A stretch of 64,000 bases of DNA, from positions 28,573 to 92,572 of the forward strand of contig JALGVU010000001.1 in the NCBI GenBank assembly GCA_025774545.1, written 5' to 3'. Positions 19,485 through 57,722 of this stretch are shown piece after piece. The position numbers and the translations under genes were made by a program. Below the pieces are notes generated by a model that was given only the letters and a program-made list of their open reading frames with translations, was not told the DNA's origin and ran no database searches. Every line of letters begins with the position of its first letter. The first letter of the stretch is position 1. This DNA comes from a bacterium (lineage in GTDB: Bacteria > Joyebacterota > Joyebacteria > Joyebacterales > Joyebacteraceae).

Positions 19485-19486
19485 CC

Positions 19487-21073: not shown

Positions 21074-21161
21074 CGCGTCGCGGTGCCGCGGCGATGCCGC
21101 CGACGGGACCGCCCGCGACTCGGCGCCGCGGAGCCAGAGCGGGCATCGGGGAGCAGCGACG

Positions 21162-31345: not shown

Positions 31346-31348
31346 CGC

Positions 31349-32464: not shown

Positions 32465-32510
32465 GGACCGCGCGCGACGGATCGGAGCACGCGGGACTTG
32501 AGGGAGACCG

Positions 32511-33620: not shown

Positions 33621-33624
33621 GCGC

Positions 33625-35930: not shown

Positions 35931-36080
35931 CACGCGGGGAGACGCCATGACGCGCGGGTGCGGCATGACACGGGGGTGCGGCATGACACGCGGGGAGACG
36001 CCATGACACGGGGGTGCGGCATGACGCCCGGCTGCGGCGTGACACGCGGGTGCGGCGTGACGCCCGGGGAGGCGGCATGA
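35923..36080 (+). repeat. Tandem array of nine 18/20-nt units (consensus GGGTGCGGCATGACACGC / GGGGAGACGCCATGACACGC), each an SD-like tract plus ATG/GTG; encodes ATGA-overlapping micro-ORFs
   Basis: ATG/GTG at 35927, 35947, 35965, 35983, 36003, 36021, 36039, 36057, 36077. Spacing follows 20,18,18,20,18,18,18,20 (56-nt super-period). Micro-ORFs are MTRGETP*, MTRGCGMTRGCGMTRGETP* and MTRGCGMTPGCGVTRGCGVTPGEAA*. Each stop overlaps the next start as ATGA. Confidence 0.85.
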
Positions 36081-37237: not shown

Positions 37238-37836
37238 TGGGCACAAGACGACTGGCCGTCTTCCTTGACAGGGACGGGACGATCAACGTCGAGCGCGGCT
37301 ACGTGACTCGGCCCGAGGACCTCGGGTTGATCGATGGCGCCGGGGGCGCGATCCGTGCGCTGAACGACGCGGGTCTCCTCGCCGTCGTGGTCAGCAACCA
37401 GTCGGGCGTCGCGCGCGGGCTCATGAGCGAGGATGACCTTGCTCGAGTGCACGAGGCGCTCGAGCGGCTCCTCGAACGGGAGGGCGCGCGGCTCGACGGC
37501 GCCTACTACTGTCCGAATTACCCCGAGGGCGTCGACGTCCGATTCACGCGGGACTTGTCGTGCCGCAAGCCGAACACCGGGATGCTCGAACTCGCGGAGC
37601 GCGAGCTCGACGTCGACCTCGCCCGGAGCGTCATGGTCGGCGACTTCGCGACCGACATCGAGCTGGCCAACCGCGCCGGGATGCCGGGCGTCCTCGTGCT
37701 GACGGGGAAGGGAACCGAAACGCTCGAGCGAGCGGCCGAGCTGGGGCTCGAGATCGCCGCCGCGGTTCCGGACATCGGCGCGGCGGTTGCGTGGATCCTC
37801 GAACGGGGGCGCGCGGACGAAGGAGACGGACGATGA
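37237..37836 (+). CDS. gmhB: D-glycero-D-manno-heptose 1,7-bisphosphate phosphatase GmhB (HAD-IIIA)
   Basis: FLDRDGTIN motif I, CxC/zinc region CPNYPEGVD...CRKP, motif GDFATD. ATG overlaps the upstream stop. Confidence 0.88.
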   Translation: MGTRRLAVFLDRDGTINVERGYVTRPEDLGLIDGAGGAIRALNDAGLLAVVVSNQSGVARGLMSEDDLARVHEALERLLEREGARLDGAYYCPNYPEGVDVRFTRDLSCRKPNTGMLELAERELDVDLARSVMVGDFATDIELANRAGMPGVLVLTGKGTETLERAAELGLEIAAAVPDIGAAVAWILERGRADEGDGR

Positions 37837-38811: not shown

Positions 38812-39780
38812 ATGCCGTCACAGTTTCCGGAGGCCGATCTCAAGAGGCTGTCTAGGGTGTCGATCCACGAGCGGGGAGGGAAGGTCCGCGTCGAGGACCT
38901 GGTCGACCCGTACGATCCCGGACCCGAGTTCGACCGGTTCCTTGCGACCGTGCCGCGCCTCTTCGCGGGCGCCGACCTCGCGTCGGCCGTCGACGCCGTC
39001 GCGCGCGCCGCGAGGGGCGGCAGGGCGGTCGTGGTGATGTACGGTGCGCACTTCGTGAAGTGCGGTCTGTCGCGTCTACTGATCGATCTCATGGAGAGGC
39101 GCGTCGTCACGGCGCTGGCCACGAACGGCGCGGGGGCCATCCACGACTTCGAGCTAGCGGCGTGGGGAACGACTTCCGAAGACGTCGCTGCCGGGCTCGA
39201 GGACGGGAGCTTCGGCATGTGCAGCGACACGGCGGACGCGATGAACGCGGCGGCGGCGGCGGGGCGACGGGACGGCCAGGGACTCGGCGAGGCCCTCGGA
39301 AGGAAACTCGAGGAGATGGAGGCACCGCATCGCTCATCGAGCATCGTGGCGCGCGCGCACGCCCTCGGCGTCCCGCACACGATCCACGTGGCGTTGGGGA
39401 CCGACATCATCCATCAGCACGCGACGGCGAGCGGAACCGATCTCGGCGAGACCAGCCTCAGGGACTTCCGAATCCTGGCGGCTGTCATCGGTGATCTCGA
39501 GGGAGGGGCCGTTCTCAACATCGGGTCGGCCGTGATCCTGCCGGAGGTTTTCCTGAAGGCGCTCACCGTGGCGAGGAACCTGGGCGGAAGCGCGGCGGGC
39601 TTCGCGGCGATCGGCATGGACATGAACGAGCCCTACCGCGCCGCTGTCAACGTTGTCGGCAGGCCGACCGCGCAATCCGGCATGGGGGTTGCACTTAGGG
39701 GGCGGCACGAGTTCCTCTTCCCGCTCTTCTGGGCGGCCGTTCGCCGGGCGCTCGACGCGGGCCGCGTCCCGGAAAGATAG
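38812..39780 (+). CDS. Deoxyhypusine-synthase-like (DHS-like NAD-binding fold) protein
   Basis: ATNGAGAIHDFE resembles the DHS TTAGGVEEDL motif. 322 aa. Strong SD GAGGAGG. Confidence 0.45.
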   Translation: MPSQFPEADLKRLSRVSIHERGGKVRVEDLVDPYDPGPEFDRFLATVPRLFAGADLASAVDAVARAARGGRAVVVMYGAHFVKCGLSRLLIDLMERRVVTALATNGAGAIHDFELAAWGTTSEDVAAGLEDGSFGMCSDTADAMNAAAAAGRRDGQGLGEALGRKLEEMEAPHRSSSIVARAHALGVPHTIHVALGTDIIHQHATASGTDLGETSLRDFRILAAVIGDLEGGAVLNIGSAVILPEVFLKALTVARNLGGSAAGFAAIGMDMNEPYRAAVNVVGRPTAQSGMGVALRGRHEFLFPLFWAAVRRALDAGRVPER

Positions 39781-40085: not shown

Positions 40086-40778
40086 GTGTATTTCGTCGAC
40101 GAGAGATTCGGGTACGGTGTGGTCGAGGAGTACGCTCGGGGATCCGAGGAGCGGGAAGGGCTACTGAGGGGAGCGTTCTATCGCAGGTACGTCAAGCGAC
40201 CGTTCGACGTCGCTGCAAGTGCGCTCGGCGTGGCAGTGCTCTCACCCTTCTTTCTCGTACTCTCGATCCTGATCAAGCTGGACTCACCGGGTCCAGTGCT
40301 TTTCAAGCAGCTCAGGGTGGGGAAGGACGGGAGGCAGTTCTGGTTCTACAAGTTCAGGTCGATGGTAGTGAACGCGGAGGAGATGAAGAACAAGCTCATG
40401 CACCTGAACGAGCTCGAGGGCCCCGTGTTCAAGATCAGCGACGACCCCCGCATCACGAAGGTCGGCCGCTTCCTCAGAAGGACGAGCCTCGACGAGTTGC
40501 CGCAGCTTCTTAACGTGCTCCGCGGCGACATGAGCCTCGTCGGACCGAGGCCGCCGCTTCCCGGGGAGGTGGAGAACTACGAGAGCTGGCAGAAGGAACG
40601 GCTCTCCGTCTGTCCAGGGCTGACGTGCCTGTGGCAGGTGAGTGGACGCAATCACATCGGGTTTACGGAGTGGGTCCGGCTCGACCTCGAGTACATCCGT
40701 CGCCAGTCGTTCGGACTCGACGCGAAGATCCTCGCCAGGACACTTCCTGCCGTGATCTCGCGAAAGGGGGCGTACTAG
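40086..40778 (+). CDS. Undecaprenyl-phosphate sugar phosphotransferase (small PglC/WbaP-C type bacterial sugar transferase)
   Basis: Single TM helix then the Bac_transf domain ([16 protein letters not shown]). GTG start. Confidence 0.85.
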
Positions 40779-42644: not shown

Positions 42645-42821
42645 GCGTCGGTTCAGCCGAGGAGATCCGCGGGAGCCCGGCGAGGAGCCTCCCGTCGGAC
42701 GACGGATCACGCGAGAGGGCCGAGGCCCCATAACGGTGGCACGAGTTATGCTTTAGATCCTCTCGTCGAGCGCGCCCGCAGTGAGCGGGATGCGCCCTCT
42801 TGGTGGATGGGGGACACGGAC

Positions 42822-43565
42822 ATGACACGGAGAACGACGAGGCTGGGCTTCGCCCTCGCCGGTTTGGCCCTCTGTCTCGTTGGGACGGGGTGCGGCTCGA
42901 GAGGCATCCCGAGTGGGCAGGAGGTCGTCGCCGCGGCGGAGAGGCCGGCGGGAGTGCCCACGTACCGGCTTCGCTTCGGCGACGAGATCAACATCTACTT
43001 CCTCACGGCCACTGACATGAACTACGGCACGCCGATCACGCCGAACGGCACGGTCGTGCTTCCCATGGGAGGCGAGGTCCTCGCCGCGGGCAGGACCGTC
43101 AAGGAACTGTCGACGTCGATCGAGGAACACATGGCCGCGTATCTTCTCGACCCGTCGACGTCGGTCTCGCTCCGTGAGATCGCAGACGTCTACGTCTACG
43201 TCATCGGCGAGGTCGAGAAGCCGGGCCGGTACGCGAGCCAGGGCGGGCTGACGGTGACGGCGGCGCTCGCGCAGGCGGGCGGAGTCGAGGCGTCCGGGAG
43301 GCAGAGCAGCGTGATGGTCGTCCGGACGAGCGGCGTCGACGAGCCGATCGCGTTCCGGGTCGACGTCACGAAGGTGCTGTCGGGACGAGACCTCCTGGAG
43401 GACGTGGCGCTCATGCCCGAGGACGTCGTCTACGTGCCGAAGTCGGTGATCGGCCACGTCGGTCAGTTCGTCGATCTCTTCTTCACGAAGATAGCGCCGG
43501 CGCAGCTGTTCTACCTCCGTCAGTGGGAGATCAACCGGCGCGCCGGCATCAAGTGGGTGGAGTAG
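42822..43565 (+). CDS. wza: Polysaccharide export outer-membrane lipoprotein Wza (Poly_export + SLBB)
   Basis: Lipobox LVGTGC. PES motif region (GDEINIY) and SLBB domain (VYVIGEVEKPGRY). Confidence 0.8.
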   Translation: MTRRTTRLGFALAGLALCLVGTGCGSRGIPSGQEVVAAAERPAGVPTYRLRFGDEINIYFLTATDMNYGTPITPNGTVVLPMGGEVLAAGRTVKELSTSIEEHMAAYLLDPSTSVSLREIADVYVYVIGEVEKPGRYASQGGLTVTAALAQAGGVEASGRQSSVMVVRTSGVDEPIAFRVDVTKVLSGRDLLEDVALMPEDVVYVPKSVIGHVGQFVDLFFTKIAPAQLFYLRQWEINRRAGIKWVE

Positions 43566-43600
43566 GGACGGCCACCCGGGGTCACCCGAGGGGACGAAGC

Positions 43601-44962
43601 TTGGACGGAAGACCGGAATACGCCAGCGAGACCACTCTGCTCCGCGACATCGTCTACGTCGTGTGCAAGCGGTGGCTCGTTCTGCTGGTGCTCGCGATCG
43701 TCGGCGTCACGATCGTCATGCACGGAACGATGACGTCGGTGGCGTCGTACCAGGCCAAGGCGAGAGTGCTCGTGAAGCGGGTGCCGCAGGCCTACACGAT
43801 GCCCACGGAGTCGCGCGCGATCCTGAGGCGGTCGGAGGTCGTGAACTCCGAGCTTCAGATCATCATGAGCTCGGCGGTGGCCGAGGCGGTCGTCGACCGA
43901 CTGGGCCTCGCCACCGGGGACGACCGGGCGATCGCGATCTACCGGCTCGAGCGACGGATCCGCGCCAAGGCGCTGCCCGAGTCTGACATCATCGACATCA
44001 GCTACCGACACCGTGATCCGGAGATGGCGGCGCTCATCGCGAACACGGCGCTCGACGCCTATCTCGACATTCGGAAGAACGTGGCCATCAACTACGACGC
44101 GGTCATCTACCTCGACGTGCAGTCCAATCGCCTGCGGGCCGCGAGGGACTCGATCGCCATGCAGATCGCCGACTTCGGCGGGAACCGGGGCCAGCTCTCG
44201 AAGGGCATCCTCTCTCAGCAGCAAATGGGGCTCACCAATCGATTCCTGAACGATCTTCTCTCGGTCGAGCAGAGGATCGAAACGAGGGAGGTGCAGCTCG
44301 AGCTCCTGGACGAGTGGCTCGAGTCTGAGTCCGACGCGTCGCAGGTGCCGACGCCCGAGCTCTACGCGATCGCCACCGTGCGCGAGGGGAAGATGCGACT
44401 CGTCGGTCTGGGTACGCAGCTCGCCGACGCGCGGGCCCGCTACGCGCCCGACCACCCGGAGGTGCTGGCGCTCGAGCGCGAGATGGACGAGACCGCGCAC
44501 TTCCTCCGGGCAGAGGTCGAACAGGCGGTGATGCGCCAGCGCGTCGAGCTTGACGCCTGGCGGGCCGAGAAGAGCACCATCGAGGGTGTGCTCGCGAAGC
44601 TGCACGCCGACGACGAGGCCGTCTTCGAGGACCAGATCGTCATCCGGATGCTCGAGCACGAACTCTCGATCCGGGCCGATCTCTATGCGATCGTGATGGA
44701 CCGCCGCGAGCAGTTCAAGATCACCGCCGCGACCGATCCTAATCTCCTGAACATCGGCATCGTGTCGCGCGCTCAGGTCCCCGCGCGTCCCACGGAACAG
44801 CCGATCAACATGAAGGTCGTCGTCGGGGTGTTCACGCTGCTCTTCGGCGTCATGCTGGTCTTCGGTCTCGAGAAGACCGACCACTCGCTGGAGCGCCGCG
44901 AGGACGTCCAGCGCTTCCTGGGACTCAAGGTGCTCGCGTCGATCCCCGACCGCAGATCATAG
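43601..44962 (+). CDS. wzz: Polysaccharide chain-length determinant (Wzz/GumC-type PCP lacking kinase domain)
   Basis: TTG start. N-terminal TM, long coiled-coil periplasmic domain, C-terminal TM (VVVGVFTLLFGVMLVFGL). Confidence 0.75.
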   Translation: MDGRPEYASETTLLRDIVYVVCKRWLVLLVLAIVGVTIVMHGTMTSVASYQAKARVLVKRVPQAYTMPTESRAILRRSEVVNSELQIIMSSAVAEAVVDRLGLATGDDRAIAIYRLERRIRAKALPESDIIDISYRHRDPEMAALIANTALDAYLDIRKNVAINYDAVIYLDVQSNRLRAARDSIAMQIADFGGNRGQLSKGILSQQQMGLTNRFLNDLLSVEQRIETREVQLELLDEWLESESDASQVPTPELYAIATVREGKMRLVGLGTQLADARARYAPDHPEVLALEREMDETAHFLRAEVEQAVMRQRVELDAWRAEKSTIEGVLAKLHADDEAVFEDQIVIRMLEHELSIRADLYAIVMDRREQFKITAATDPNLLNIGIVSRAQVPARPTEQPINMKVVVGVFTLLFGVMLVFGLEKTDHSLERREDVQRFLGLKVLASIPDRRS

Positions 44963-44978: not shown

Positions 44979-46901
44979 TTGTACGTCGATTTCTATCACC
45001 TCGTCGAGAAGCCGTTCGAGCTGGGTCCGGATCTCCGGTACCTCTACCTCTCCGCCCATCACCGCGAGGCGCTGGCGCACCTGACCTACGGCGTGAAGGA
45101 GCGGAAGAACTTCGTTCAGCTCACCGGCGAGGTCGGCATGGGCAAGACGACGATGCTCGACGCGCTCGTCGACGGGCTCGACGTGACGACGAAGGTGGCC
45201 AGGCTCTCGTACACGACCATCGGGGAGAGGGACCTCCTGCTCGAGCTCTCGCGGGAACTCGGGGTCGAACCGCCGGGGGACTCGAAGATCGAGATCCGCC
45301 GCGGGATCGAGGAGTTCCTCGACGGCTGGACGAGGGAGGGCAGGAACACTGTCTTCATCATCGACGAGTCGCAGAATCTCAAACTCGAGGTCCTCGAGGA
45401 GGTGCGGCTCCTCTCGAACCTGCGCTCAATGGGGCTCGCGGGCCTCCAGATCGTCCTGGCGGGACAGCCGGAGCTTCGGGACAAGCTCGAACTCAGGGAG
45501 CTCCGGCAGCTCCGCCAGCGGATCGGCATCCGATACCACCTCGTGCCGCTCTCCCGCGCGGAGACTGCCGAGTACATCGCACACCGCCTGACGGTCGCGG
45601 GCGCCTCGGACGTCCGTCTCTTCGACGGGGCGGCGCTGGACGCGATCTTCCGCTACTCTGAGGGCGTCCCGCGCGTCATCAACATCGTCTGCGACGCGGC
45701 GCTCCTGGCCGGCTATGCCGAGAACAGGAGGCGCGTCGGCAAGAAGCTCATCCTCGAGTCGATCGAATCGATCGAGGGGCGGCGGATTCCCGAGCGGCCG
45801 ACCCAGGACGACGAGCGGGCCGACGAGCACCGGGCCGTCGCGCGGATGGTGTCTCGCGTCAACGGCGGAGGCCGGAAGGAGCGAGCGCGATTCGCCGACG
45901 CGAGGGCCGAGAGGCCGCCCGATCCCGGTGGTCCCGTCGTGGACGCGATCGCGGCCCCGCCGGCAGGAGCGGACGTCGGAACGCCACCCGAGCCGAGCCG
46001 TGCCGCGGAACTCCCGCCGGCCGAGAGGGCGCCCGACGATGTTCTGAGCTGGAGCCGAGCCGAGCCGCGGCGGCGGAGGCTGACGATCCCCGTCGGCGGT
46101 CTCATCGTGGCGGTCTTAGCTGCGGCCGGCTATCTCTACTTCGATCAGGACGTCCGGCCCGCGGCGCTTCTCTCGTCGTGGGCGGAGCGCGACAACGCCC
46201 GCATCGCCGAGCAGCCGTCTGGGCTCGGGCGGGCCCACGCCAACGCGGAGACCGGTGTCCTCGGAGCGATCCAGGAGGCTGGCGTGTCGGCTCACGAGCG
46301 TTCCGCGTCCGGCGACGCCGGCGAGAGGAACGGCGAGGCCGCGCAGGTCCCCGCTGGCGAGGAGCGGCCGACGAACGGAGGCCGCACGGGCGCCGAACCC
46401 GCGAGCCCTTCGGAGGCCGGTTCCGGTCCGGCGAGCGGCGATCCCGATGGCTCCGAGCTGGGAGACCCGGCGCCGGCGAACGTCGGGGCGGGGAGTGCCG
46501 GATCGAGAGTCGCGTCGCCCGAGCGTGCGGGGGCCGCGAGCCCGGCGCCCGAGGGGACCCGGGAGGATCGGCGGCCGGTGCGCCCCCCGGCTCCCGCGCA
46601 GACGGAGCGTTCGGACGACGGAGCCAAGGCCTGGATCGACAGCGGTCCGGTGGTCGGACCCGGAGGCGCCTACGCCGTGATCGCGAGATCGGTGAACACC
46701 GAGGCGGGGGCCCGCGCGGAGGCAGCCCGACTCGAGGAGAAGAGCTTCGGTGTTGAGATCGCGGAGGCCGACCTCGACGAGAAGGGGATCTGGTACCGCG
46801 TGATCATCCGGGGCGGCTTCCCGACGTTCGAGGCGGCCCAGGAAATCCGCGCGATGCTCGGAAGCTCCGGGTACGGTGGGGCTTGGATCATCAAGCGCTA
46901 G
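44979..46901 (+). CDS. ExeA/GspA-like AAA ATPase fused to C-terminal SPOR peptidoglycan-binding domain (polysaccharide-locus secretion ATPase family)
   Basis: Walker A GEVGMGKTT and Walker B IIDESQ. About 250 aa P/A/G/E-rich linker. SPOR-like terminal 80 aa (YAVIARSVNTEAGARAEAARL...WYRVIIRGGF). Confidence 0.7.
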   Translation: MYVDFYHLVEKPFELGPDLRYLYLSAHHREALAHLTYGVKERKNFVQLTGEVGMGKTTMLDALVDGLDVTTKVARLSYTTIGERDLLLELSRELGVEPPGDSKIEIRRGIEEFLDGWTREGRNTVFIIDESQNLKLEVLEEVRLLSNLRSMGLAGLQIVLAGQPELRDKLELRELRQLRQRIGIRYHLVPLSRAETAEYIAHRLTVAGASDVRLFDGAALDAIFRYSEGVPRVINIVCDAALLAGYAENRRRVGKKLILESIESIEGRRIPERPTQDDERADEHRAVARMVSRVNGGGRKERARFADARAERPPDPGGPVVDAIAAPPAGADVGTPPEPSRAAELPPAERAPDDVLSWSRAEPRRRRLTIPVGGLIVAVLAAAGYLYFDQDVRPAALLSSWAERDNARIAEQPSGLGRAHANAETGVLGAIQEAGVSAHERSASGDAGERNGEAAQVPAGEERPTNGGRTGAEPASPSEAGSGPASGDPDGSELGDPAPANVGAGSAGSRVASPERAGAASPAPEGTREDRRPVRPPAPAQTERSDDGAKAWIDSGPVVGPGGAYAVIARSVNTEAGARAEAARLEEKSFGVEIAEADLDEKGIWYRVIIRGGFPTFEAAQEIRAMLGSSGYGGAWIIKR

Positions 46902-46942: not shown

Positions 46943-47692
46943 ATGAGCAAGATCTCGAAGGCGATGGACAGGTCGCGGCAGGAACACGCCAGGCGCGACG
47001 GGAGCCCGCCGGTGCTTCCGGATGAGCGGGCTCGCGCGCGGCGGCTTGGGTCCGGCCGGCTCGCCCTCTCGTCCTCGGAGGAGTACCAGACGCTCGCGTC
47101 CGAGATCTTCCTCGCGCTCCCTCAGGCGGAATGCAGGACGGTGATGTTCGTTGCCTCGGTCTCGGGCGAGGGTACGAGTCTCGTCGCGCGGGAGTTCGCC
47201 GCGTCGTTGGCCGCTCAGGGCGAGGTGGAGACGCTCCTCGTCGACGCGAATCTCCGGAAGCCGTCGCTGCACGACTTCTTCAGGACGCCCCGTGATCCGG
47301 GGCTCGCCGACCACATTCTCGGGAACGCCCCTCTGTCCGATTGCCTGAAGGGGATCGGTGTGCCGCGCCTGACGCTCCTGACGGCCGGTCGGCCCGTGGT
47401 GTCGCCGCCGCGCGTTCTCGGCCATCCGCGGATGGAGGGGATGCTGACGGAGCTCCGTAGGCGGTTCTCCTGCGTCGTGTTCGACGTTCCATCGGTCCTC
47501 TCGTATTCCGAGGGCGTCTCGCTCTCGCGGGGCGTCGACGGCGTGGTGGTCGTGATACGCTCCGGCAGGACCAAGCGCGAGCTGATCCAGCACGCGCTCC
47601 ACCTTCTCGACGGTGCGGGGGCGAAGGTGCTCGGGACGGTGCTCAATCGCAGGCGGTTCTACATCCCACGGTTTCTCTACGAGCGAATCTAG
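46943..47692 (+). CDS. BY-kinase (CpsD/CapB, MinD-like) homolog with degenerate Walker A and no Tyr cluster
   Basis: Walker A position reads SGEGTS (Lys replaced by Thr). Walker A' is VDANLRKP and Walker B is VVFDVPS. C-terminus has only two Tyr. Confidence 0.65.
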   Translation: MSKISKAMDRSRQEHARRDGSPPVLPDERARARRLGSGRLALSSSEEYQTLASEIFLALPQAECRTVMFVASVSGEGTSLVAREFAASLAAQGEVETLLVDANLRKPSLHDFFRTPRDPGLADHILGNAPLSDCLKGIGVPRLTLLTAGRPVVSPPRVLGHPRMEGMLTELRRRFSCVVFDVPSVLSYSEGVSLSRGVDGVVVVIRSGRTKRELIQHALHLLDGAGAKVLGTVLNRRRFYIPRFLYERI

Positions 47693-47803
47693 CCTCCCGA
47701 GACGCCGTGTCGGCCGTCCTGCCGCAGCGGGAGGCGTGTTCGCGAGGCGTGGATGCGCGGCGGCCGTGCTCTAGCCGCCGCGACCTGTTTTCGGGAGATC
47801 CGG

Positions 47804-49393
47804 ATGAACGGGATCGGTGAAACGCTGCACCGGCTCTACGAGCGGTCGGAGGACTACCTCGGACGCTCGTGGCCCGCCTGGTTGGTCGCCATCCTGTTCT
47901 ACGCCGCGGCCTCCAACGTCCTCATGACGCGCGCGAGCTTCAAGACGCCGCTCCACTTCGTCGTCTTCGTGATGGCATTCACGATCCTCGTTCTCACGCT
48001 CATCAAGGTCGAGTGGGCGATTCTCGGGCTCGTTGCCATGATCGCCTTCACCCGTCCTGGCTTCAGTATCGGTCCCATGAGGACCTTCCACGTGAGCGGC
48101 TTCAACGTCGCGCTGGTCGGCGTGTGGATCGTCTACCTGGCTCGCTACTCGATCGACCGCGAGATGGCCTCGCTGGGACCGATCGTCAGGAAGACCGCCG
48201 TCGACAAGATCGCCATCGCCTACGTCTGCCTCGTCACGATCTCGGCGCTTCTCGGAATCAACAAGAACGTCGATCCCGTTCGATTCGGCGACGTCATTTC
48301 GAACGCCGATCCACAGATGAGGGTGCTCCTCTACTACAAAGAGCAGATCCTCTACTTCGCGTGGTTCTATCTGGTCATAACGCTGACGCGCAAGCCAAGA
48401 GATCTGAGACGCCTGGCGGTCGTCTTCGCGATCGGGGGGCTTCTGGTGGCCTTGGTCGGCCTCTACAACCGGTTCACGGGGAGCATGCAGTTGGCGGGGG
48501 CCGACGCGCAGGCCGAGGCCGGAATCGTCGGCGGCCGCTTGAAGTCGGTCGGCTTCCTCGGCGTCGGGCATCCCAACTTCTTCGGCGCGCTGCTCCTCAT
48601 GACGTTGCCCATGTGGTTCTTCATCGTCGACCACGTCAAGGGTTTCTTCCGGAGGCTCTTCTGTAACCTGGCGATCCTCTCGGGTTTCTTGGCGCTCCTC
48701 TTCACGTTCTCGAGGAGCGCCTGGATCGGGATGCTCGCGGGGCTCGCGATGCTCGGTATCACCGACAGGCGCGCTCTCGTGAGGATCGTGTTCTTCCTGA
48801 TGCTCTTCATGGTCGTCGCGCAGGGGCTCTCGCTGACGATCGCCGACATGGGTGTCATCGATCTCATCGGCGGCCGTTTCAGCCAGCTCAGCCGGAGCGG
48901 CTACTCCGAGCGTCCCGAGATCTTCAAGAGCGCCTTCACGCTCATCAGGAGGAACCCCATGACGGGCGTCGGGCCGGGGGCCTATCCGTGGCACGCCGAC
49001 ACGGACTGGCGAGGCGGGGGCCGGCCCGTCCTCCAGGCGCACAACGTCTTCCTGACGATCGCCGCCGAGATCGGTCTTCCGGCGCTCATCGCCTGGGCGG
49101 CGCTCCTGATCGCGATCTTCGTCATGGCGATCAAGAACCTGAGGGTCCTCTCGCGCGTTCCCGGATACGGGTTCATCGCGCAGGGCGCCTACGCGGCGCT
49201 CTTCGCTACGACCGCGCAGAGCTTCTTCGTGCACCTCTTCACGGACAGAAACGTCGGGTACGCCTACTTCACGATGATCGCCATCATCGTCGTCCTCAAT
49301 CGGTTCGTGCGGGAGGGACGATTGACGGCGTCGGGTGAGGTGCTTCCCGAGGGCACTCCTCCGCAGCCGCGTTCGACGGTCTGGGTCGAGTGA
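47804..49393 (+). CDS. wzy: O-antigen polymerase / ligase-like membrane protein (Wzy)
   Basis: About 12 TM helices. Wzy_C motif region (FTFSRSAWIGMLAGL ... GVGPGAY). Visibly lower GC than neighbours. Confidence 0.7.
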   Translation: MNGIGETLHRLYERSEDYLGRSWPAWLVAILFYAAASNVLMTRASFKTPLHFVVFVMAFTILVLTLIKVEWAILGLVAMIAFTRPGFSIGPMRTFHVSGFNVALVGVWIVYLARYSIDREMASLGPIVRKTAVDKIAIAYVCLVTISALLGINKNVDPVRFGDVISNADPQMRVLLYYKEQILYFAWFYLVITLTRKPRDLRRLAVVFAIGGLLVALVGLYNRFTGSMQLAGADAQAEAGIVGGRLKSVGFLGVGHPNFFGALLLMTLPMWFFIVDHVKGFFRRLFCNLAILSGFLALLFTFSRSAWIGMLAGLAMLGITDRRALVRIVFFLMLFMVVAQGLSLTIADMGVIDLIGGRFSQLSRSGYSERPEIFKSAFTLIRRNPMTGVGPGAYPWHADTDWRGGGRPVLQAHNVFLTIAAEIGLPALIAWAALLIAIFVMAIKNLRVLSRVPGYGFIAQGAYAALFATTAQSFFVHLFTDRNVGYAYFTMIAIIVVLNRFVREGRLTASGEVLPEGTPPQPRSTVWVE

Positions 49394-50568
49394 TGGGAGC
49401 CAAACCGCGCGTCCCTGAGGCGCTTCCGAGCGAGATAGCGTTTGTGACCGACGCGCGCGCGTGGGGCGGCGCCGAGGTCTACCTGACGCAGCTCCTCGTC
49501 GGGTTCCGGCGGCTCGGCATCCGCACCAAACTCTACTGCGCCGATCGTCGGGTCATCGACGATTGGGCCGACGATCTCAAGAGCCAGGGCATCGAGGTCG
49601 CCTTCTTCCGGCCGACGAAGGAGTTCAACCCCCTCGGCGTCTTCGTTGCCTGGCGGTGCCTGCGAGGCTACGAGTTCGTTCACGTCAACAAGACGCAGAC
49701 CAGGAACTCCCTCCCGGCGATCATCGGCGCGCGCCTCGCGGGTGCTGCGACCGTCGTCACGACGGAACACCTCGCCATCCCGATCGAGTCCCACTACCCG
49801 TTCGGCAGGGCGATCATCACGACGCTCGCCCGAATCACGAACCGGCTCGTCGATCGCGTGATCGCGGTCTCGGAGCTCTCCCGCACGATGCTGATCGAGA
49901 ACTACTCCCTCGATCCGTCGACGATCGTCACCGTCAGGAACGGAATCGACCTGGCGCGGTTCCGGGGGGAGTTCGACTCGGCTCCTTTGCGCCGCGAGCT
50001 CGGCCTCGCTGAGGACGATCTCGTGGCGATCTTCGTCGGGAGGCTGACGCCCCGGAAGGGGCACGCCTACGCTCTCGAAGCGGCGCCCTCGGTTCTCGCC
50101 GCGATTCCGGGCTTCAAGCTCCTCTTCGTGGGGGACGGGGAGCTCGAGACGGAGCTGCGCCGGCGGGCGCGGACACTCGGGATCGAGGGCTCCGTCGTCT
50201 TCGCCGGCTTCCGCCGCGACATCGCGGAGCTTCTCGCCGCGTCGGATCTCCTGATCCTCCCGTCCGAGAGCGAGTGCCTTCCGCTCACGATCCTGGAGGC
50301 GATGGCCTCGGGACTCCCGGTCGTCGCGGGCGACGTCGGCGGCGTGAGCGAGGAGGTCGAGGACGCCGTGACGGGCCTGCTCGTTCAGCCGCGGGACGCC
50401 GACGGGCTCGCCGAGGCGATCGTCGCGATTCTCGGCGCGCCGGATCACGGCGCAGGTCTGGGCGCCGCCGGCAGGGAGAAGGTGGAGGCCGAATTCAGCC
50501 TCGACGCCTGCATCAGCGGCGTCCTTCGCGTCTACGACGAGCTTCTGAATGAGGTGGCGCGACGATGA
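49390..50568 (+). CDS. Glycosyltransferase family 4
   Basis: GT4 fold (GGAEVY ..., LEAMASGLPVVAGDVGG). Confidence 0.8.
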   Translation: MMGAKPRVPEALPSEIAFVTDARAWGGAEVYLTQLLVGFRRLGIRTKLYCADRRVIDDWADDLKSQGIEVAFFRPTKEFNPLGVFVAWRCLRGYEFVHVNKTQTRNSLPAIIGARLAGAATVVTTEHLAIPIESHYPFGRAIITTLARITNRLVDRVIAVSELSRTMLIENYSLDPSTIVTVRNGIDLARFRGEFDSAPLRRELGLAEDDLVAIFVGRLTPRKGHAYALEAAPSVLAAIPGFKLLFVGDGELETELRRRARTLGIEGSVVFAGFRRDIAELLAASDLLILPSESECLPLTILEAMASGLPVVAGDVGGVSEEVEDAVTGLLVQPRDADGLAEAIVAILGAPDHGAGLGAAGREKVEAEFSLDACISGVLRVYDELLNEVARR

Positions 50569-51809
50569 GCGACACACGGACGCTCAGGATCCTCAGCGTC
50601 AATCAGTGGTTCTACCCGGACAGCTTCGGGGGCATCGAGCGCGTCTCATACGAGACCGCGAGGCGGCTGGCCGCCCGCGGCCACGTGATCGACCTCGTGG
50701 GGGAGAGGCGGAGGGCGGACACGCCCGACGTCGAGGAGCTGTACGGCGTGACGGTGCATCGCTACGGCAGCTGCGAGCAGAGCCGCCGATTCGGCGGCCG
50801 GACGATCGGGGCGCTCTACCGCTCGCGCCCGGTCATCGCGGGCCTCCTCGCCGAGAACCGGTACGACCTCGTGCTGGGGCAGCATCAGCTGCCGATGTAC
50901 GCCTACCTGAGAACTGCCCGCCGCAAGACCGTCCCGGAGGTTCAGATCTTCCATGCTTCGTACTGGCGCGAGCTTCGCCTCGAGGGAGCGGAGCGGAACA
51001 TCGGCAAGCCGCTCGAGACGCTCCTCTACGGGACGCTCGTCAAGCGGGCGGAGGCGGCGGGACTCAGGCGCGCCGACCGCGTCGTCATTCTGTCGGACTT
51101 CTCCAGAGAACAGCTCCTCGCGTATCACCCGTTCGTCGACGGCAAGATCGTCAAGATCGCGGGCGGTGTCGATCTCGAACGCTTCCGCCCCGCCGCCGAT
51201 CGCGCGGCTCTCAGACGCGAGTTGGGTCTCCCGGCGGATCGGCAGATCCTCTTCACCGCCCGCCGACTCGTGCCCCGGATGGGGCTCGAGAACCTGATCG
51301 TGGGGTTCGCGGAGGCGCGCGGCGGCTTCCCGAGCGCTCTTCTCGTCATCGCCGGGCGCGGTCGCCTCGAGGACGACCTCCGAAGGCTCGTGGCCGCTCA
51401 CGGGCTCACGGATGCGGTCTCGTTTGTCGGGTTCGTCCACGACGACGAGCTCGTGAAGCACTACCAGGTGGCCGATCTCTTTGTGCTGCCCTCCCTCGCG
51501 TTCGAGGGGTTCGGCATGGTGACCCTCGAGGCCCTCTCCTGCGGCACGCCGGTGATCGGAACGCCGATCGGGGCGACCCCGGAGCTTCTCCGACCACTCT
51601 CCCCGCAGCTCCTCCTCTCCGGCACGGAACCGCCGGCGATCCGTCGAGGCATCCACATCCTGCTCGAGTGGCTCTCCGACGCGAAGGCGGCGGAAGAGCT
51701 GAGAGCGCGGTGCCGCGCCTACGTCGAGGAGCGGTACGGCTGGGATCGGGCGGTCGACGCGCTCGAGGAGCTGTTCCTCGCGCTCGTCGCGGGCGGAGCA
51801 GGATCGTGA
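50565..51809 (+). CDS. Glycosyltransferase family 4
   Basis: GT4 fold (FGGIERV..., LEALSCGTPVIGT). Confidence 0.8.
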   Translation: MSDTRTLRILSVNQWFYPDSFGGIERVSYETARRLAARGHVIDLVGERRRADTPDVEELYGVTVHRYGSCEQSRRFGGRTIGALYRSRPVIAGLLAENRYDLVLGQHQLPMYAYLRTARRKTVPEVQIFHASYWRELRLEGAERNIGKPLETLLYGTLVKRAEAAGLRRADRVVILSDFSREQLLAYHPFVDGKIVKIAGGVDLERFRPAADRAALRRELGLPADRQILFTARRLVPRMGLENLIVGFAEARGGFPSALLVIAGRGRLEDDLRRLVAAHGLTDAVSFVGFVHDDELVKHYQVADLFVLPSLAFEGFGMVTLEALSCGTPVIGTPIGATPELLRPLSPQLLLSGTEPPAIRRGIHILLEWLSDAKAAEELRARCRAYVEERYGWDRAVDALEELFLALVAGGAGS

Positions 51810-51823
51810 GCCGGAACTCACGC

Positions 51824-54109
51824 ATGCGCTGGTTGATCGCGAGGGCGCGGGCGATGACGCCCGCGGAGCTCACGCTCCGCGGGTCGCGCGCGGCCAGGGA
51901 GGCGGTGCGCCGCCGCTCCCGTGGGCGACGCGGCGAGGCGCTGCCGTCCCTCCGCGATCTCCTCGACCCTCGAACCGTCGACCTCGATGCCGCGACGGCC
52001 GAGACGCTCGTGTCGTCGATCCGTGGCCGCGCGCTCGCGGTCGGGGATCCGGTCGAGACGGAGCGCGCTCTCGGCGCGATCGGCGGTTCTCGGGACGCTG
52101 TCGTCCGGGCGGCGGACGAGGTGCTCGCTGGGGCGATCGCGGCGTTCGGCCACGGGACCCTCGACATCGGGACGTCGCCGGATTGGCTGCGCGACCCGGT
52201 CAGCGGCCGGAGCTGGCCGCTCGTCTTCTGGCCGGACGTCGACTACCGGTTCGACGACTCGGTGGGCGACCCGCGATACGTCTGGGAGGTCAACCGCCAC
52301 CACCACCTCGCCACGCTCGGCAGGGCGTTCCATCTGTCGGGGGAGCCGCGATTTGCGACGGCGGTCTGGTCCCACATCCTGTCATGGATCGACCGGAACC
52401 CGCCGTATCGTGGAATCAACTGGTCAAGCGCACTCGAGATGGCCATCCGCCTGATTTCATGGGGGATGGCGCTCGACCTCGTCGGGTGCGAGGGAGCGCC
52501 CGAGGGTGCGGCCGAGAGGGTGCTCACGAGCGTGTCATTGCAGGCTCACCACCTGTGTGATAATCTTTCCGTTTATGCCTCGTCGAAGAACAACCACCTG
52601 ATTGGCGAAGCAGTGGGGCTTCTGGCCGCCGGGACCCTCTTTCCGGAGCTCCTCAAGGCCGGCGCCTGGGCGAGGAAGGGGCGGACGCTCCTGGAACGCG
52701 AGATCCGGGCACAGGTGAGCCCGGACGGCGTCAGTCGGGAACAGACGTTGCACTACCAGGTCTTCGTGCTCGAGTTCTGCCTGGTTGCGGCGGCGCTCGC
52801 TCGCACATCGGGGCGGCCTCTCTCTCCGGCCTTCTTGACGACTGTCGAAGAGATGGGGGTCTTCCTCGAGCGGACGGCAGGCCTCGCCGGCTCGCCGCCC
52901 TCCGTGGGCGACGAGGACGGCGGCCGCGTCTACGAGCTCGCCGACGAGACCGAACGGCAGGCGGCACGGGCCGCGGCTTGCGCCGCGTTTGCGGCCGGGC
53001 GGCCCCCGCGCGCGCCACTGAGGGAGCGCGATCTCGAGCCGGCCGTGTGGCTCTTCGGGCCTTCCGACGTGGGGGCGTGGCTCTCGTCTCGGACGGGCGA
53101 GCCGCGTGGCAGCGCGACCGAGTCGGCCGCCTACACGCTCGGCGGCTACTTCGTCCCCTCATCGGGAAGTCAGCACGGCGTGATCGACTGCGGTCCCCTC
53201 GGACTCGGGTCGATCGCGGCGCACGGACACGCGGACTGCCTGTCGCTCTCGATCGCGGATCGCGGCAGGTGGCTCGTGGTCGATCCCGGGACCTACTGCT
53301 ACCACCGCGAGCGGGTTCTGCGCGATCACTTCCGTGGCACGGCGGCGCACAACACCGTGTGCGTCGACGGGCGCGATCAGTCGGAGATCCTGGGTCCCTT
53401 TCTGTGGGGACGTCGCGCGCGCCACGAGCAGCTTGCGTGGGCGTCGGGTGACGGCTTCGACTTCTTCGACGGCGCGCACGACGGGTACGAGAGAACGTCC
53501 GGCGTGCGACACCGCCGGAGAGTCGTGTTCGGGAAGAGAGGGTACTGGATCGTCGTCGACAGCCTCGAGGGCACCGGCCGACACACGATCGGGGCGACGT
53601 TTCAGCTCGCGCCGGGCCTCGAACCCACCGCGGACGGCGGGCTCGAGTTCCGGCACGCCGACGGGTTCGGCGTCGCGTTTCGCGCGTGGCTGCCGGCGGG
53701 GCTTCGCATCGACGTTCTCGAAGGGCGGGAAGACCCGCCGGCGGGATGGGTCTCTCCCGCGTTCGGCGTCAAGCTTGCCGCTCCGGCCGTGAGGGCCACG
53801 GGGGAGATCGATCTTCCGGCGACGCTCGTCTTTGCGGTCGTCCCCTTCGAGGGGGAGCCCGAGATCGACGTCGAGTGCCTGACGGGGGCCTGGAGGGACG
53901 GCGCGGTGTTCGAGGCGACCTTCCCGGAGGGGCGAGACCGGTGCTTCCTCGGCCGTCCGCCGGCGTCGCCCGGGACCGGCACCTTCGACGGGGCGTTCGG
54001 GTTCACCGCCCACCGCGGGGCGGAGCGACGGGCGTACGGGTTTGAGATCAGAGACTGGAAGGACGGCGACGCGGCCGTCCCCCACGAGGAGATCCGCTGC
54101 GCGCTCTAG
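51824..54109 (+). CDS. Heparinase II/III-family protein (polysaccharide lyase/epimerase-like fold)
   Basis: N-terminal alpha/alpha toroid region (WEVNRHHHL, NHL) and C-terminal Hepar_II_III beta-sandwich (HGHADCLS). Start codon uncertain: the in-frame GTG at 51806 overlaps the upstream stop, the ATG at 51824 was chosen. The 50549 N-terminal extension of the track ORF was rejected. Confidence 0.65.
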   Translation: MRWLIARARAMTPAELTLRGSRAAREAVRRRSRGRRGEALPSLRDLLDPRTVDLDAATAETLVSSIRGRALAVGDPVETERALGAIGGSRDAVVRAADEVLAGAIAAFGHGTLDIGTSPDWLRDPVSGRSWPLVFWPDVDYRFDDSVGDPRYVWEVNRHHHLATLGRAFHLSGEPRFATAVWSHILSWIDRNPPYRGINWSSALEMAIRLISWGMALDLVGCEGAPEGAAERVLTSVSLQAHHLCDNLSVYASSKNNHLIGEAVGLLAAGTLFPELLKAGAWARKGRTLLEREIRAQVSPDGVSREQTLHYQVFVLEFCLVAAALARTSGRPLSPAFLTTVEEMGVFLERTAGLAGSPPSVGDEDGGRVYELADETERQAARAAACAAFAAGRPPRAPLRERDLEPAVWLFGPSDVGAWLSSRTGEPRGSATESAAYTLGGYFVPSSGSQHGVIDCGPLGLGSIAAHGHADCLSLSIADRGRWLVVDPGTYCYHRERVLRDHFRGTAAHNTVCVDGRDQSEILGPFLWGRRARHEQLAWASGDGFDFFDGAHDGYERTSGVRHRRRVVFGKRGYWIVVDSLEGTGRHTIGATFQLAPGLEPTADGGLEFRHADGFGVAFRAWLPAGLRIDVLEGREDPPAGWVSPAFGVKLAAPAVRATGEIDLPATLVFAVVPFEGEPEIDVECLTGAWRDGAVFEATFPEGRDRCFLGRPPASPGTGTFDGAFGFTAHRGAERRAYGFEIRDWKDGDAAVPHEEIRCAL

Positions 54110-55515: not shown

Positions 55516-56742
55516 TTGAAGGGCAAGAGGCACATCGTCATCATCGTCGAGAACCTGCCGGTCCCGTTCGATCGACGCGTCTGGCTCGAGTCGACGACGC
55601 TCAAGGCCGCCGGATACGACGTCAGCGTGATCTGTCCGCAGGGCAGCGGCGGGGCCTACAGCGAGCCGCACGAGGAGATCGACGGGATACACATCTATCG
55701 GTACAAGCACCCTCCGCCCACGACGACGAAGATCTCCTACGCGTGGGAGTTCCCGTACTGCTGGTTCAACAGCCTCAGGCTGGCGCTCGGGATTGCGAGG
55801 AGGGAGGGCTTTGACGCGATTCACGCGTGCAACCCGCCGGACACGTTCTTCCTGATCGGTGTCATCTTCAAGCTCCTCAGACGCTCGAAGTTCGTCTACG
55901 ACCAGCACGATCTCTGCCCCGAGCTCTACCTGTCCCGGTTCGGCGGGAGGAGGGCGCTCTACTTCTGGCTCCTGCGGTTGCTCGAGTGGGTCACCTACCG
56001 CTCGGCCGACATGGTGCTCGCGACGAACGAGTCGTACAAGGGACACGCCGTCGAGACGGGGAAGGTCCCGGCCGACGACGTCTACGTCGTCAGGAGCGGT
56101 CCACGCCTCACGCACTTCAACCCGGTGCCTCCCGAGCCCGAGCTCAAGAGGGGACGGAAGAACCTCGTGTGCTACCTCGGCGTGATGGCGCCGCAGGACG
56201 GCCTCGACTACCTGCTCCGCGCGGCGAGGCACGTCATCGACGTCGTCAACCGCCGCGACGTGCACTTCGTCCTGATCGGGAGCGGGGACTCGTTCGAAGC
56301 GGTCAAGAGCCTGAGGGACGACCTCGGCCTGGCCGACTACGTTGAGATGACCGGCCGCATCCCCGACGCGGACGTGCAGCGCTACCTCTCCACGGCGGAC
56401 CTCTGTGTCTGCCCGGATCCGAGGAACCCCCTGAACGACGTCTCGACCATGAACAAGGTCCTCGAGTACATGACCTTCTCCAAGGCCATGGTCTCGTTCG
56501 ATCTGATCGAGAGCCGGTTCTCGGCGCGGGACGGAGCGCTCTACGCGAGCCCGAACGACGAGATCGAGTTCGGCGAACGGATCATCCAGCTCCTGGACGA
56601 CGACGAGCTTCGGGAGGAGATGGGGGCGCGGAACCGGAAGCGGATCGAGGACGAGCTCTCGTGGGAGCACACGAGCAAGGAGCTCCTCAGGGCCTACGGC
56701 GTGCTGTTCGGAGGGAGCGAGGGAGCGGAAGGGAAGGGATGA
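55516..56742 (+). CDS. Glycosyltransferase family 4
   Basis: TTG start. GT4 fold (HACNPPDTF ... E-rich C-terminal motif). Confidence 0.75.
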   Translation: MKGKRHIVIIVENLPVPFDRRVWLESTTLKAAGYDVSVICPQGSGGAYSEPHEEIDGIHIYRYKHPPPTTTKISYAWEFPYCWFNSLRLALGIARREGFDAIHACNPPDTFFLIGVIFKLLRRSKFVYDQHDLCPELYLSRFGGRRALYFWLLRLLEWVTYRSADMVLATNESYKGHAVETGKVPADDVYVVRSGPRLTHFNPVPPEPELKRGRKNLVCYLGVMAPQDGLDYLLRAARHVIDVVNRRDVHFVLIGSGDSFEAVKSLRDDLGLADYVEMTGRIPDADVQRYLSTADLCVCPDPRNPLNDVSTMNKVLEYMTFSKAMVSFDLIESRFSARDGALYASPNDEIEFGERIIQLLDDDELREEMGARNRKRIEDELSWEHTSKELLRAYGVLFGGSEGAEGKG

Positions 56743-57722
56743 TGGGTCCCCTGGGGTGCGTCGTCGCGGTCACGTACCGGTGCGACGCCAGATGCACGAT
56801 GTGCGACATCTGGAAGCAGGAGGTCGACCGGGAGACGGAGCTTGCGGCTTCCGACTACGCCTGGCTTCCCGCGTCGCTCCGATCGATCAACGTCAGCGGG
56901 GGCGAGCCGTTTCTCCGAGACGATCTCGTCGAGATCGTCTCGGTGATGCGGCGGGCGTGCCCGAAGGCGAGGATCGTCATCTCGACGAACGGGCTGGCGC
57001 CCTCGCGGATCGAGCGCATGGTCGGCGAGATGGGGGACGTCGCGGTCAGGGTGTCGGTCGACGCTGCGGGGTCCCTGCACGATGAGATCCGGGGCGTCGA
57101 CGGCGCGTACGAGCGCGCGATCGAGACCGCTCTCAGGCTCCGGGCCGCGGGCGTCAGCGACCTCGGGCTCGCCGCGACCTCAACGGAGGGGAACCCCGGC
57201 GAGCTCAGGGGAGTGAAGGAGGTCGCCGACGGTTTCGGCATGGAGTTCGCCGCGAGCGCTGCCCACAGCTCGCCGATCTTCTTCGGCGAGCACGAGAGCG
57301 AGCGGCCCCACTCGGACCGTGCGGTCGCGGAGATCGCCGGGATCATGAGGGAGTGGCTCAGGTCGCCGAGGCCGCGTGACTGGGCGAAGGCATACTACAT
57401 GCGCGGCCTCATCGACTACGTGCAGGGCAAGCCCAGGCGCCTCGCGTGCCGGGCCGGTCTGGACCTCTTCTTCCTCGATCCGAAGGGTCTCGTCTACCCC
57501 TGCAACATCTCGGGGACCCTCATGGGGAACGTGAGGGACGGGAGCTTCGAGGACTTGAGGCGGGCGACCCGAACGGAAGTGCGCCGCAAGGTGGCGGAGT
57601 GCCCGCACCAGTGCTGGATGATCTGCACGGTCTCGCCTCCCATGTGGAGGAGGCCCTTGGGTCCTCTCGCGTGGATGGCCGGAGCCAAGCTTCTGAAGCT
57701 TGACAGCCGCGCGGGTCAATGA
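56739..57722 (+). CDS. Radical SAM domain protein (CxxxCxxC; SPASM/twitch-like C-terminal Cys)
   Basis: YRCDARCTMCD motif 10 aa from the start and C-terminal CPHQCWMIC. ATG overlaps the upstream stop. Confidence 0.7.
   Translation: MMGPLGCVVAVTYRCDARCTMCDIWKQEVDRETELAASDYAWLPASLRSINVSGGEPFLRDDLVEIVSVMRRACPKARIVISTNGLAPSRIERMVGEMGDVAVRVSVDAAGSLHDEIRGVDGAYERAIETALRLRAAGVSDLGLAATSTEGNPGELRGVKEVADGFGMEFAASAAHSSPIFFGEHESERPHSDRAVAEIAGIMREWLRSPRPRDWAKAYYMRGLIDYVQGKPRRLACRAGLDLFFLDPKGLVYPCNISGTLMGNVRDGSFEDLRRATRTEVRRKVAECPHQCWMICTVSPPMWRRPLGPLAWMAGAKLLKLDSRAGQ

Follow-up and report, generated by a model that had tools for sequence, protein, structure and literature searches.

The 64,000-nucleotide (64-kb) stretch of contig JALGVU010000001.1 analyzed here, hereafter called the window, is the part of this bacterial genome that our searches covered. 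Within a polysaccharide locus, it carries a gene for a 249-amino-acid protein that, judging from its sequence, is a bacterial tyrosine kinase (BY-kinase) pseudokinase: a stand-alone form of the type known from PslE of Pseudomonas aeruginosa. The protein has the P-loop BY-kinase fold and has lost the Walker A lysine. We consider it likely that it is catalytically dead and provides the kinase-like subunit, located in the cytoplasm, of a two-part polysaccharide co-polymerase (PCP) complex of class PCP-2 in an exopolysaccharide (EPS) pathway of the Wzx/Wzy type. This reading draws on the fold, the motif losses and how well they are conserved, the synteny, and a search of the window that found no phosphatase. 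BY pseudokinases are an established class, and proteins like PslE, EcpK of Myxococcus xanthus and HfsB of Caulobacter crescentus were first characterized in 2025-2026. What is added here is that the class is very large and crosses phyla, that it has a simple sequence signature, and that its members are widely annotated as autokinases.

The open reading frame (ORF) runs on the + strand from an ATG at 46943 to a TAG at 47690-47692, and this ATG is taken as the start because the N-terminus (MSKISKAM...) is conserved in orthologs. The protein matches BY-kinase family models exclusively, each under its curated cutoff: TIGR03018 (124.4 bits against a cutoff of 230.65), TIGR01007 (107.0 against 108.05) and TIGR03029 (87.4 against 313.8). 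A Pfam scan of the protein gave no match at 1e-3. Among PDB sequences, phmmer found VpsO (2e-22) and CapB (in chimeras, 2e-21), and next Etk, BceF and Wzc. An earlier note on this DNA had placed the protein in the CpsD/CapB/Wzc-C family, and these matches agree. The predicted monomer model shows a strand at residues 65-71, a loop and a helix at residues 78-92 in the P-loop region. It also has a helix at residues 4-16 followed by a linker with a low predicted local distance difference test score (pLDDT), and residues I4, A7 and E14 of the N-terminus are at least 90% conserved over 113 sequences, lysine-bearing relatives included.

The loss of the Walker A lysine is the central observation. In HMMER alignments, 'sgegts' of the query lies opposite 'pgegkt' of VpsO and 'pgagks' of CapB, which puts Thr78 at the position of the catalytic lysine. 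Its codon (ACG, 47174-47176) differs by one base from AAG. We collected 81 full-length orthologs (47-80% identity), nearly all from Candidatus Eisenbacteria-type metagenome-assembled genomes. None of them has a canonical GK[ST], and position 78 is threonine in 66, alanine in 11, valine in four and lysine in none. Its neighbors are retained, with G77 in 81/81 and position 79 occupied by serine (77) or threonine (4). In the six orthologs examined at the codon level, Thr78 is encoded by ACG or ACC, and the ratio of nonsynonymous to synonymous substitution rates (dN/dS) against six orthologs is 0.15-0.41, which indicates purifying selection on the gene. Because lysine is absent from all 81 orthologs, the threonine codons are ACG or ACC, and dN/dS falls in this range, the lysine loss is real, old and maintained in a functional gene. 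The lysine-to-threonine substitution claimed in the earlier note is thus genuine, and the check for its conservation in orthologs has now been made.

The nearest lysine-bearing relatives carry GEGKT, with lysine at position 78 in 26 of 26. They are TIGR03018-like (about 195 bits, below the cutoff), and the C-terminal motif described below is absent from them. Their last 20 residues (one such relative is encoded at our locus L007, 4593-5387) contain no tyrosine, so autophosphorylation of a C-terminal cluster is doubtful for these relatives.

The other nucleotide-site motifs are preserved. Walker A' (VDANLRKP) and Walker B (VVFDVPS) are both present, as had been claimed, and D101, R105, P107 and D181 are invariant in the family. 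N235 is invariant or nearly so among the 81 orthologs, like these four residues and like G77 and S79. Against the Walker A' consensus hhhhDxDxR, the first aspartate and the arginine are kept and the second aspartate is an asparagine. This asparagine was considered as a second catalytic loss and set aside as uninformative, since the nearest lysine-bearing relatives have the same residue. Walker B follows the pattern hhhhDxxP, and the consensus in the ortholog family is D-x-P-P.

Two further features had been overlooked. One is the EX2RX2R oligomerization (O) motif, which functions in the oligomerization of BY-kinases (PMC9800525). CapB reads SEKFRGIRS here and the window protein SEEYQTLAS, so that both arginines have been replaced. 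Among the orthologs, E46 is kept in 75/81, position 49 is Q, H or L, and position 52 is alanine in 70/81. The nearest lysine-bearing relatives have K and R at positions 49 and 52.

The other feature is the C-terminal tail. It begins directly after the conserved LNR motif that closes the kinase core, and the tyrosine clusters (Y-clusters) of canonical BY-kinases sit at that same place. The tail has only two tyrosines, Y240 and Y246, and no multi-tyrosine cluster, in agreement with the earlier description. That description had also called the two tyrosines scattered, and here it needs correction. They lie within a conserved, presumably functional terminal motif, N-R-R-[RK]-F-Y-[IV]-P-x-[FM]-[IV]-Y-[ED]-R-[LI]-COOH, in which P242, Y246 and R248 are each found in 81/81 orthologs and Y240 in 75/81. 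The hydrophobic moment of the tail, calculated as a test for an amphipathic helix, is 0.15-0.51.

The combination of a lysine-less P-loop with this tail extends far beyond the close orthologs. The family profile was searched against 1.84 billion representative proteins (50%-identity clusters), and the counts that follow refer to the best 150 matches, of which 145 were new. A canonical GK[ST] is missing in 134 of these 145 distant representatives. In 128, the lysine is absent and the tail motif is present; the other 17 comprise one with lysine and tail, ten with lysine and no tail, and six with neither. The missing lysine is therefore associated with the tail (Fisher p = 1e-10). Position 78 in the 128 clade members is A (44), T (41), C (15), V (14), S (8) or N (4), and K in 0/128. 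G77, S/T79, D181 and P242 are present in every one (128/128), and N235 (126), D101 (122), Y246 (119) and R105 (117) in nearly all. Y240 is less constant: it occurs in 55/128, and about half have H or V there. Besides stand-alone proteins, fused PCP-type proteins of 630-723 amino acids (P0149, P0155, P0168, P0193 and others) belong to the clade, and these have the same lysine-less P-loop and tail as the window protein.

When species-representative genomes were scanned, relatives with the tail turned up in Desulfobacterota (Syntrophobacteraceae, Syntrophorhabdus, Desulfobulbaceae), Thermodesulfovibrionales and Nitrospiraceae, and further ones in Alpha- and Gammaproteobacteria, Bacteroidota, Victivallales and Glassbacteria. 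A few tail-bearing relatives (L038, L042, L048, L054, L071) keep the lysine and have a degenerate Walker A' (DGSID, DGNLH, DFNGN). A gene for an AAA_22 ATPase, of the kind described below, is often near the tail-bearing relatives in these genomes. When a homolog search was seeded with an alphaproteobacterial lysine-less relative, no cultured species, such as the source of Sphingomonas PrmG or Acidiphilium, was among the matches. Proteins of this clade are widely annotated as tyrosine autokinases, and this annotation is probably wrong. Overall, members of the clade seem to have lost a catalytic element, not always the same one. The signature of the class is a small residue at the lysine site together with a C-terminus of the form Y/H-[IV]-P-x-x-h-Y-x-R-h, and the tail motif can serve as a simple marker in sequences. 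Thus, the phosphorylation-independent version of these proteins is no curiosity; it is a very large class that crosses phyla (Eisenbacteria, Desulfobacterota, Nitrospirota, Proteobacteria, Bacteroidota and others).

The protein had also been suggested to be ATP-binding-defective. This part of the claim is not established, since the other nucleotide-site residues are conserved. Because G77, S/T79, D101, R105, D181 and N235 are near-invariant and only the lysine is replaced by a small residue, we tentatively propose that the pocket probably still binds nucleotide and Mg2+ as a structural or conformational ligand, without turnover. This is plausible because the Walker A mutant Wzc K540M has lost its ATPase activity, yet retains binding of ATP-Mg and ADP-Mg as well as oligomerization (PMC9800525; PDB titles). 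The near-intact pocket, seen across the 128 representatives, appears to set the window family apart from EcpK and PslE. A loss of the lysine alone with a kept pocket poses the question of whether nucleotide binding without turnover is part of the scaffold function.

The genomic setting fits a role in polysaccharide export. The host is a diderm, judged by the BamA, Skp, LpxD/C/A/B/K and KdtA genes in the window, and a large polysaccharide locus extends from about 40 kb onward (Table 1). Its further genes include those for GT4 glycosyltransferases, a heparinase II/III-like protein and a UDP-sugar dehydrogenase, among others. The order of five genes, encoding the outer-membrane polysaccharide export (OPX) protein, the PCP, the AAA_22 ATPase, the kinase-like protein and the Wzy_C protein, is identical in orthologous loci at 74%, 53% and 51% identity, and it is the same in all Eisenbacteria-type loci with enough flanking sequence. 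The PCP, the ATPase and the kinase-like protein are each encoded by a single copy in the window. No phosphatase or second-kinase domain was found by Pfam in any likely gene of the 64 kb, nor was a signature of LMW-PTPs (protein tyrosine phosphatases of low molecular weight) found there. Likewise, no exosortase domain is among the Pfam matches of the window's likely genes; PEP-CTERM proteins were not specifically searched.

The PCP is the separate Wzz-like protein that the earlier note had paired with the kinase-like gene. It is encoded upstream and is kinase-less, but the two genes are not adjacent, with the AAA_22 gene between them. Its true start is probably downstream of 43523 because the orthologs have 441-458 amino acids. 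The protein ends about 30 residues past its second transmembrane (TM) segment, and its cytoplasmic tail, ...LEKTDHSLERREDVQRFLGLKVLASIPDRRS (also given as ...LEKTDHSLERREDVQRFLGLKVLASIPDRR), is conserved in orthologous loci, where the PCP tails of close orthologs end in conserved basic residues, [DE]R[RK]. We take this tail to resemble the CapA modulator tail and the Wzc linker. In the AAA_22 ATPase, Walker A is intact (GEVGMGKTT), one TM segment is predicted, and the C-terminus carries a SPOR (peptidoglycan-binding) domain. Its orthologs range from 284 to 640 amino acids with a variable C-terminal part, and the TM segment and SPOR domain are missing in some. The layout of this ATPase parallels that of ExeA of type II secretion.

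Table 1. Features of the kinase-like gene and its neighbors (window coordinates)
Feature	Position	Strand	Remarks
Initiating polyprenyl glycosylphosphotransferase (Bac_transf)	40086..40778	+	Profile matches
PMT_2 membrane protein			In polysaccharide locus, listed between the glycosylphosphotransferase and OPX genes
Wza-like OPX protein	42807..43565	+	Poly_export and SLBB
PCP (PCP-2, Wzz-like), kinase domain absent	43523..44962	+	EpsF/TIGR03007/Wzz, below cutoffs
ExeA/GspA-like AAA_22 ATPase	44979..46901	+	TIGR03015-like, 273.8 bits against a cutoff of 324.5
Stand-alone BY-kinase-like protein without Walker A lysine, 249 aa	46943..47692	+	Putative BY pseudokinase, PslE type
N-terminal helix MSKISKAMDRSRQEHA	46943..46990	+	Conserved; followed by a variable linker, residues 18-42, probably disordered
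O-motif remnant EEYQTLA	47078..47098	+	Residues 46-52
Degenerate Walker A / P-loop VASVSGEGTSL	47150..47182	+	Residues 70-80
Walker A' TLLVDANLRKP	47231..47263	+	Residues 97-107
Walker B CVVFDVPS	47471..47494	+	Residues 177-184
Conserved C-terminal tail NRRRFYIPRFLYERI-COOH	47645..47689	+	Residues 235-249; low confidence in monomer model
Wzy_C / O-antigen-ligase-like membrane protein, candidate Wzy polymerase	47753..49393	+	Immediately downstream of kinase-like gene

It is reasonable to propose how such a complex might be arranged. The kinase-like protein would dock on the C-terminal tail of the PCP and form a cytoplasmic layer beneath the PCP oligomer. Since it would not autophosphorylate, the complex would operate without the phosphorylation/dephosphorylation cycle of the Wzc type. 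The basic-aromatic tail (RRRFYIPRFLYERI) would sit at the membrane-cytoplasm interface, where it might touch PCP transmembrane helices at their base, the Wzy polymerase of the adjacent gene on its cytoplasmic face, or both. Contact with Wzy could then couple polymerization to export. The docking, the inactivity and the role of the tail are suggested by homology to CapA/CapB, EcpK/EpsV and HfsB/HfsA, and above all to PslE. Wzc-type machines have been thought to need a phosphorylation cycle, and PslE, EcpK and HfsB recently showed exceptions. A pseudokinase or non-phosphorylating scaffold had already been suspected in the earlier note, and the orthologs, the purifying selection, the lack of a phosphatase or second kinase in the window, PslE and the literature on lysine mutants all speak for it.

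Several points weigh against this arrangement. The tail is disordered in the predicted monomer model (pLDDT <50). The N-terminal half of the PslE domain aligned with neither the window protein nor the family profile. Furthermore, PslE has a longer tail, of which the first half alone (NRRRFx[IV]P) can be aligned, and the one tyrosine in it is differently spaced. Finally, residual activity is possible because the catalytic residues other than the lysine are better conserved than in EcpK or PslE.

Among the alternatives, it is unlikely, though not at odds with the scaffold model, that the window protein is mainly an adaptor for the AAA_22 ATPase, which would drive an energy-dependent or regulatory PCP cycle in place of phosphorylation and whose SPOR domain would link the machine to peptidoglycan. 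An AAA_22 gene with intact Walker A and B motifs lies between the PCP and kinase-like genes in all close orthologs and adjoins many remote relatives as well. In the Sphingomonas prm cluster, which is likened to this locus by description, PrmE, PrmF, PrmG and Wza are all required for EPS (PMC11340318). However, lysine-bearing relatives have the same ATPase next door, so it does not specifically make up for lost kinase activity, and within 6 kb of several tail-bearing relatives that lack the lysine there is no AAA_22 gene.

Loss of the O-motif, which is needed for trans-phosphorylation in the ring, speaks against an active, noncanonical kinase or ATPase, as does the failure to find a phosphatase in the window. 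In such an enzyme, which we regard as quite unlikely, another basic residue would replace the lysine, and Y240/Y246 would form a minimal phospho-acceptor site. The replacement might come from the protein's own K/R211 or tail R237/R238/R248, or in trans from the [DE]R[RK] at the C-terminus of the PCP. This idea gains from the fact that the remaining nucleotide-site residues are all conserved, that basic residues at positions 65, 211, 237, 238 and 248 are specific to the lysine-less proteins, that Y246 is nearly universal in a tail that starts right after the LNR motif, and that the PCP tails of close orthologs end in conserved basic residues. In the CapA/CapB pair, moreover, the CapA tail extends as far as the nucleotide site. 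Yet this basic end is not kept in remoter lysine-less systems (L005, L006), and about half of the wider clade has H or V in place of Y240. Each tested Walker A lysine mutant of a BY-kinase (in Wzc, VpsO and ExoP) has lost ATPase and kinase activity (PMC9800525), and PslE, with the same lysine loss and the same start of the tail, is kinase-inactive (PMC13434223).

A related but distinctly improbable idea is that the lysine-less P-loop is 'split' rather than dead: it would bind nucleotide and Mg2+ and be completed on assembly by a basic residue supplied in trans. The candidate donors are its own tail (R237/R238/R248), a neighboring subunit or the basic PCP C-terminus. If this were true, the protein, together with the AAA_22/SPOR ATPase, would provide a phosphorylation-independent, assembly-gated nucleotide switch on polymerization and export, and such a switch would span a very large cross-phylum clade whose members are now labeled tyrosine autokinases.

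BY-kinases are known to phosphorylate other proteins, and Y246 is conserved. Perhaps, then, a canonical BY-kinase whose gene lies elsewhere in the genome phosphorylates one or both tail tyrosines in trans, which would make the window protein a regulated substrate or decoy. We consider this highly improbable: no kinase or phosphatase was found in the 64-kb window, and in M. xanthus, the EcpK-dependent synthesis of EPS requires neither of that species' two bona fide BY-kinases (PMC12004946). An artifact, either a sequencing error that turned AAG into ACG or a decaying pseudogene, is for practical purposes ruled out, since, even though the ACG codon is a single substitution from AAG, all 81 orthologs have T, A or V instead of lysine (with ACG or ACC for threonine), dN/dS is 0.15-0.41, the reading frame is intact and the synteny is conserved.

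The window has other features of note. Within the polysaccharide locus, the ORF at 50549-54109 (+; 1186 amino acids) is a composite in a high-GC region and not one gene; the real genes within it encode a GT4 glycosyltransferase (50565-51809) and a heparinase II/III-like protein (about 51.9-54.1 kb). The glycosyltransferase genes of the locus have among them one for a radical SAM protein (56661-57722, +); orthologous loci encode it too, and its ortholog at L004 carries a SPASM domain. Two ORFs, 38812-39780 (+) and 26124-27260 (+), have a strong coding signal, with GC contents at third codon positions (GC3) of 0.86 and 0.92, respectively, and no Pfam match. At the place of the former, between genes for a DUF3108 protein and a phosphoglycosyltransferase, orthologous loci have an ORF of 315-318 amino acids that also lacks a Pfam match; the likeness is one of position and size only.

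Upstream of the polysaccharide locus and separate from it lies a cluster of the lipopolysaccharide (LPS)-core type (29361-37836, +), with three GT9 heptosyltransferases and GT4 enzymes. It includes a second Wzy_C/O-antigen-ligase-like gene (36014-37237) and a HAD-family hydrolase that gave generic HAD matches only and may be a GmhB-type phosphatase. A lipid A cluster (LpxD, LpxA, LpxB, LpxK, KdtA) contains LpxC and a FabA/FabZ-like dehydratase in one reading frame (about 9250-10564, +, within the ORF 8699-10564). A Memo and AMMECR1 fusion protein (19481-21073, +) is followed by a radical SAM enzyme (20943-22295, +), and this pair corresponds to an AmmeMemoRadiSam-type gene set with two of its parts fused.

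Several known systems resemble the window locus in their components. The EPS cassette associated with XrtA/PEP-CTERM (TIGR03027 for export, TIGR03007 for chain length, TIGR03018, named a 'tyrosine autokinase', and TIGR03015 for the ATPase) combines an OPX protein, a PCP, a BY-kinase-like protein and an ExeA-like ATPase, as the window does, and it provides the best NCBIfam matches for all four neighboring genes, although all four scores are below the curated cutoffs. In Sphingomonas LM7, the prm cluster encodes Wza, the AAA+ ATPase PrmE, the Wzz protein PrmF and the CapB-like PrmG, and according to its authors, the ATPase had no earlier association with polysaccharide assembly (PMC11340318). 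We liken prmD-G to the window genes by component description only, and PrmE may be the same type of ATPase. GumC of Xanthomonas, which has been called a 'pseudo-BY-kinase' (PMC9800525), is, again by description, a PCP with a kinase-like cytoplasmic domain that has no Y-cluster and works independently of phosphorylation; GumC is a fused protein, whereas the window protein stands alone.

The CapB/CapA pair of Staphylococcus aureus, a canonical split BY-kinase (PCP-2b), shares the split architecture, and the C-terminal tails of the CapA modulator and the window PCP have the common form ...LG.xVL..IP.... However, CapB has K55, EX2RX2R, a C-terminal Y-cluster, autophosphorylation and the phosphatase CapC, and we recognize none of these at the present locus (for the phosphatase, within the window).

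EcpK and HfsB are stand-alone proteins of the BY-kinase fold without the catalytic motifs. Each binds a PCP-2 that has no kinase domain, at its C-terminus, and polysaccharide synthesis needs them (PMC12004946, 2025). Further BY pseudokinase candidates had been listed in earlier sequence surveys (PMC12004946). The likeness to the window protein, drawn by description and not by sequence comparison, lies in a separate BY-kinase-fold protein without kinase hallmarks whose PCP-2 partner is kinase-less. EcpK and HfsB have been proposed to be scaffolds on the cytoplasmic C-terminus of the PCP, with a C-terminal basic segment proposed to touch the membrane or the base of the TM helices. In EcpK, all three Walker motifs and several secondary-structure elements are gone, and its C-terminal helix has no tyrosine; in the window protein, the losses are confined to the lysine and the O-motif arginines, and the terminal motif, with tyrosine and proline, is distinct. 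In addition, ecpK is not adjacent to epsV, whereas the window genes form one cluster.

PslE is the closest characterized relative that we found. Residues 177-245 of the window protein match residues 583-651 of PslE (E = 2.8e-6), with the start of the tail, 'vlnrrrfyiprfl', opposite 'iinrrrfevpskv'. The two proteins have in common the fold family, the absence of the Walker A lysine and of a Y-cluster, and also a homologous C-terminal half, and NRRRFx[IV]P at the start of the tail. Each also goes with a Wza-like OPX protein and a Wzy polymerase (for the window protein, a candidate one), and neither has a cognate phosphatase (for the window protein, within the window). We know of no ExeA-like ATPase between the genes of the psl locus. 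The kinase-like domain of PslE (PDB 9v75/9v6l) has neither the Walker lysine nor a Y-cluster and was shown biochemically to have no tyrosine-kinase activity, strain PAO1 is without a Wzb-like phosphatase, and PslE octamers locked by disulfides stay functional (PMC13434223, 2026). The PslE C-terminal tail is at the membrane-cytoplasm interface and adjoins transmembrane helix 2 of the neighboring protomer, and PslE Y658C cross-links to S2C of the polymerase PslJ (PMC13434223). Deletion of the tail weakens PslJ binding and abolishes Psl production (PMC13434223). The two also differ in architecture: PslE and its PCP form one fused protein, whereas the window protein is a 249-amino-acid polypeptide of its own, paired with a PCP that has a CapA-like tail.

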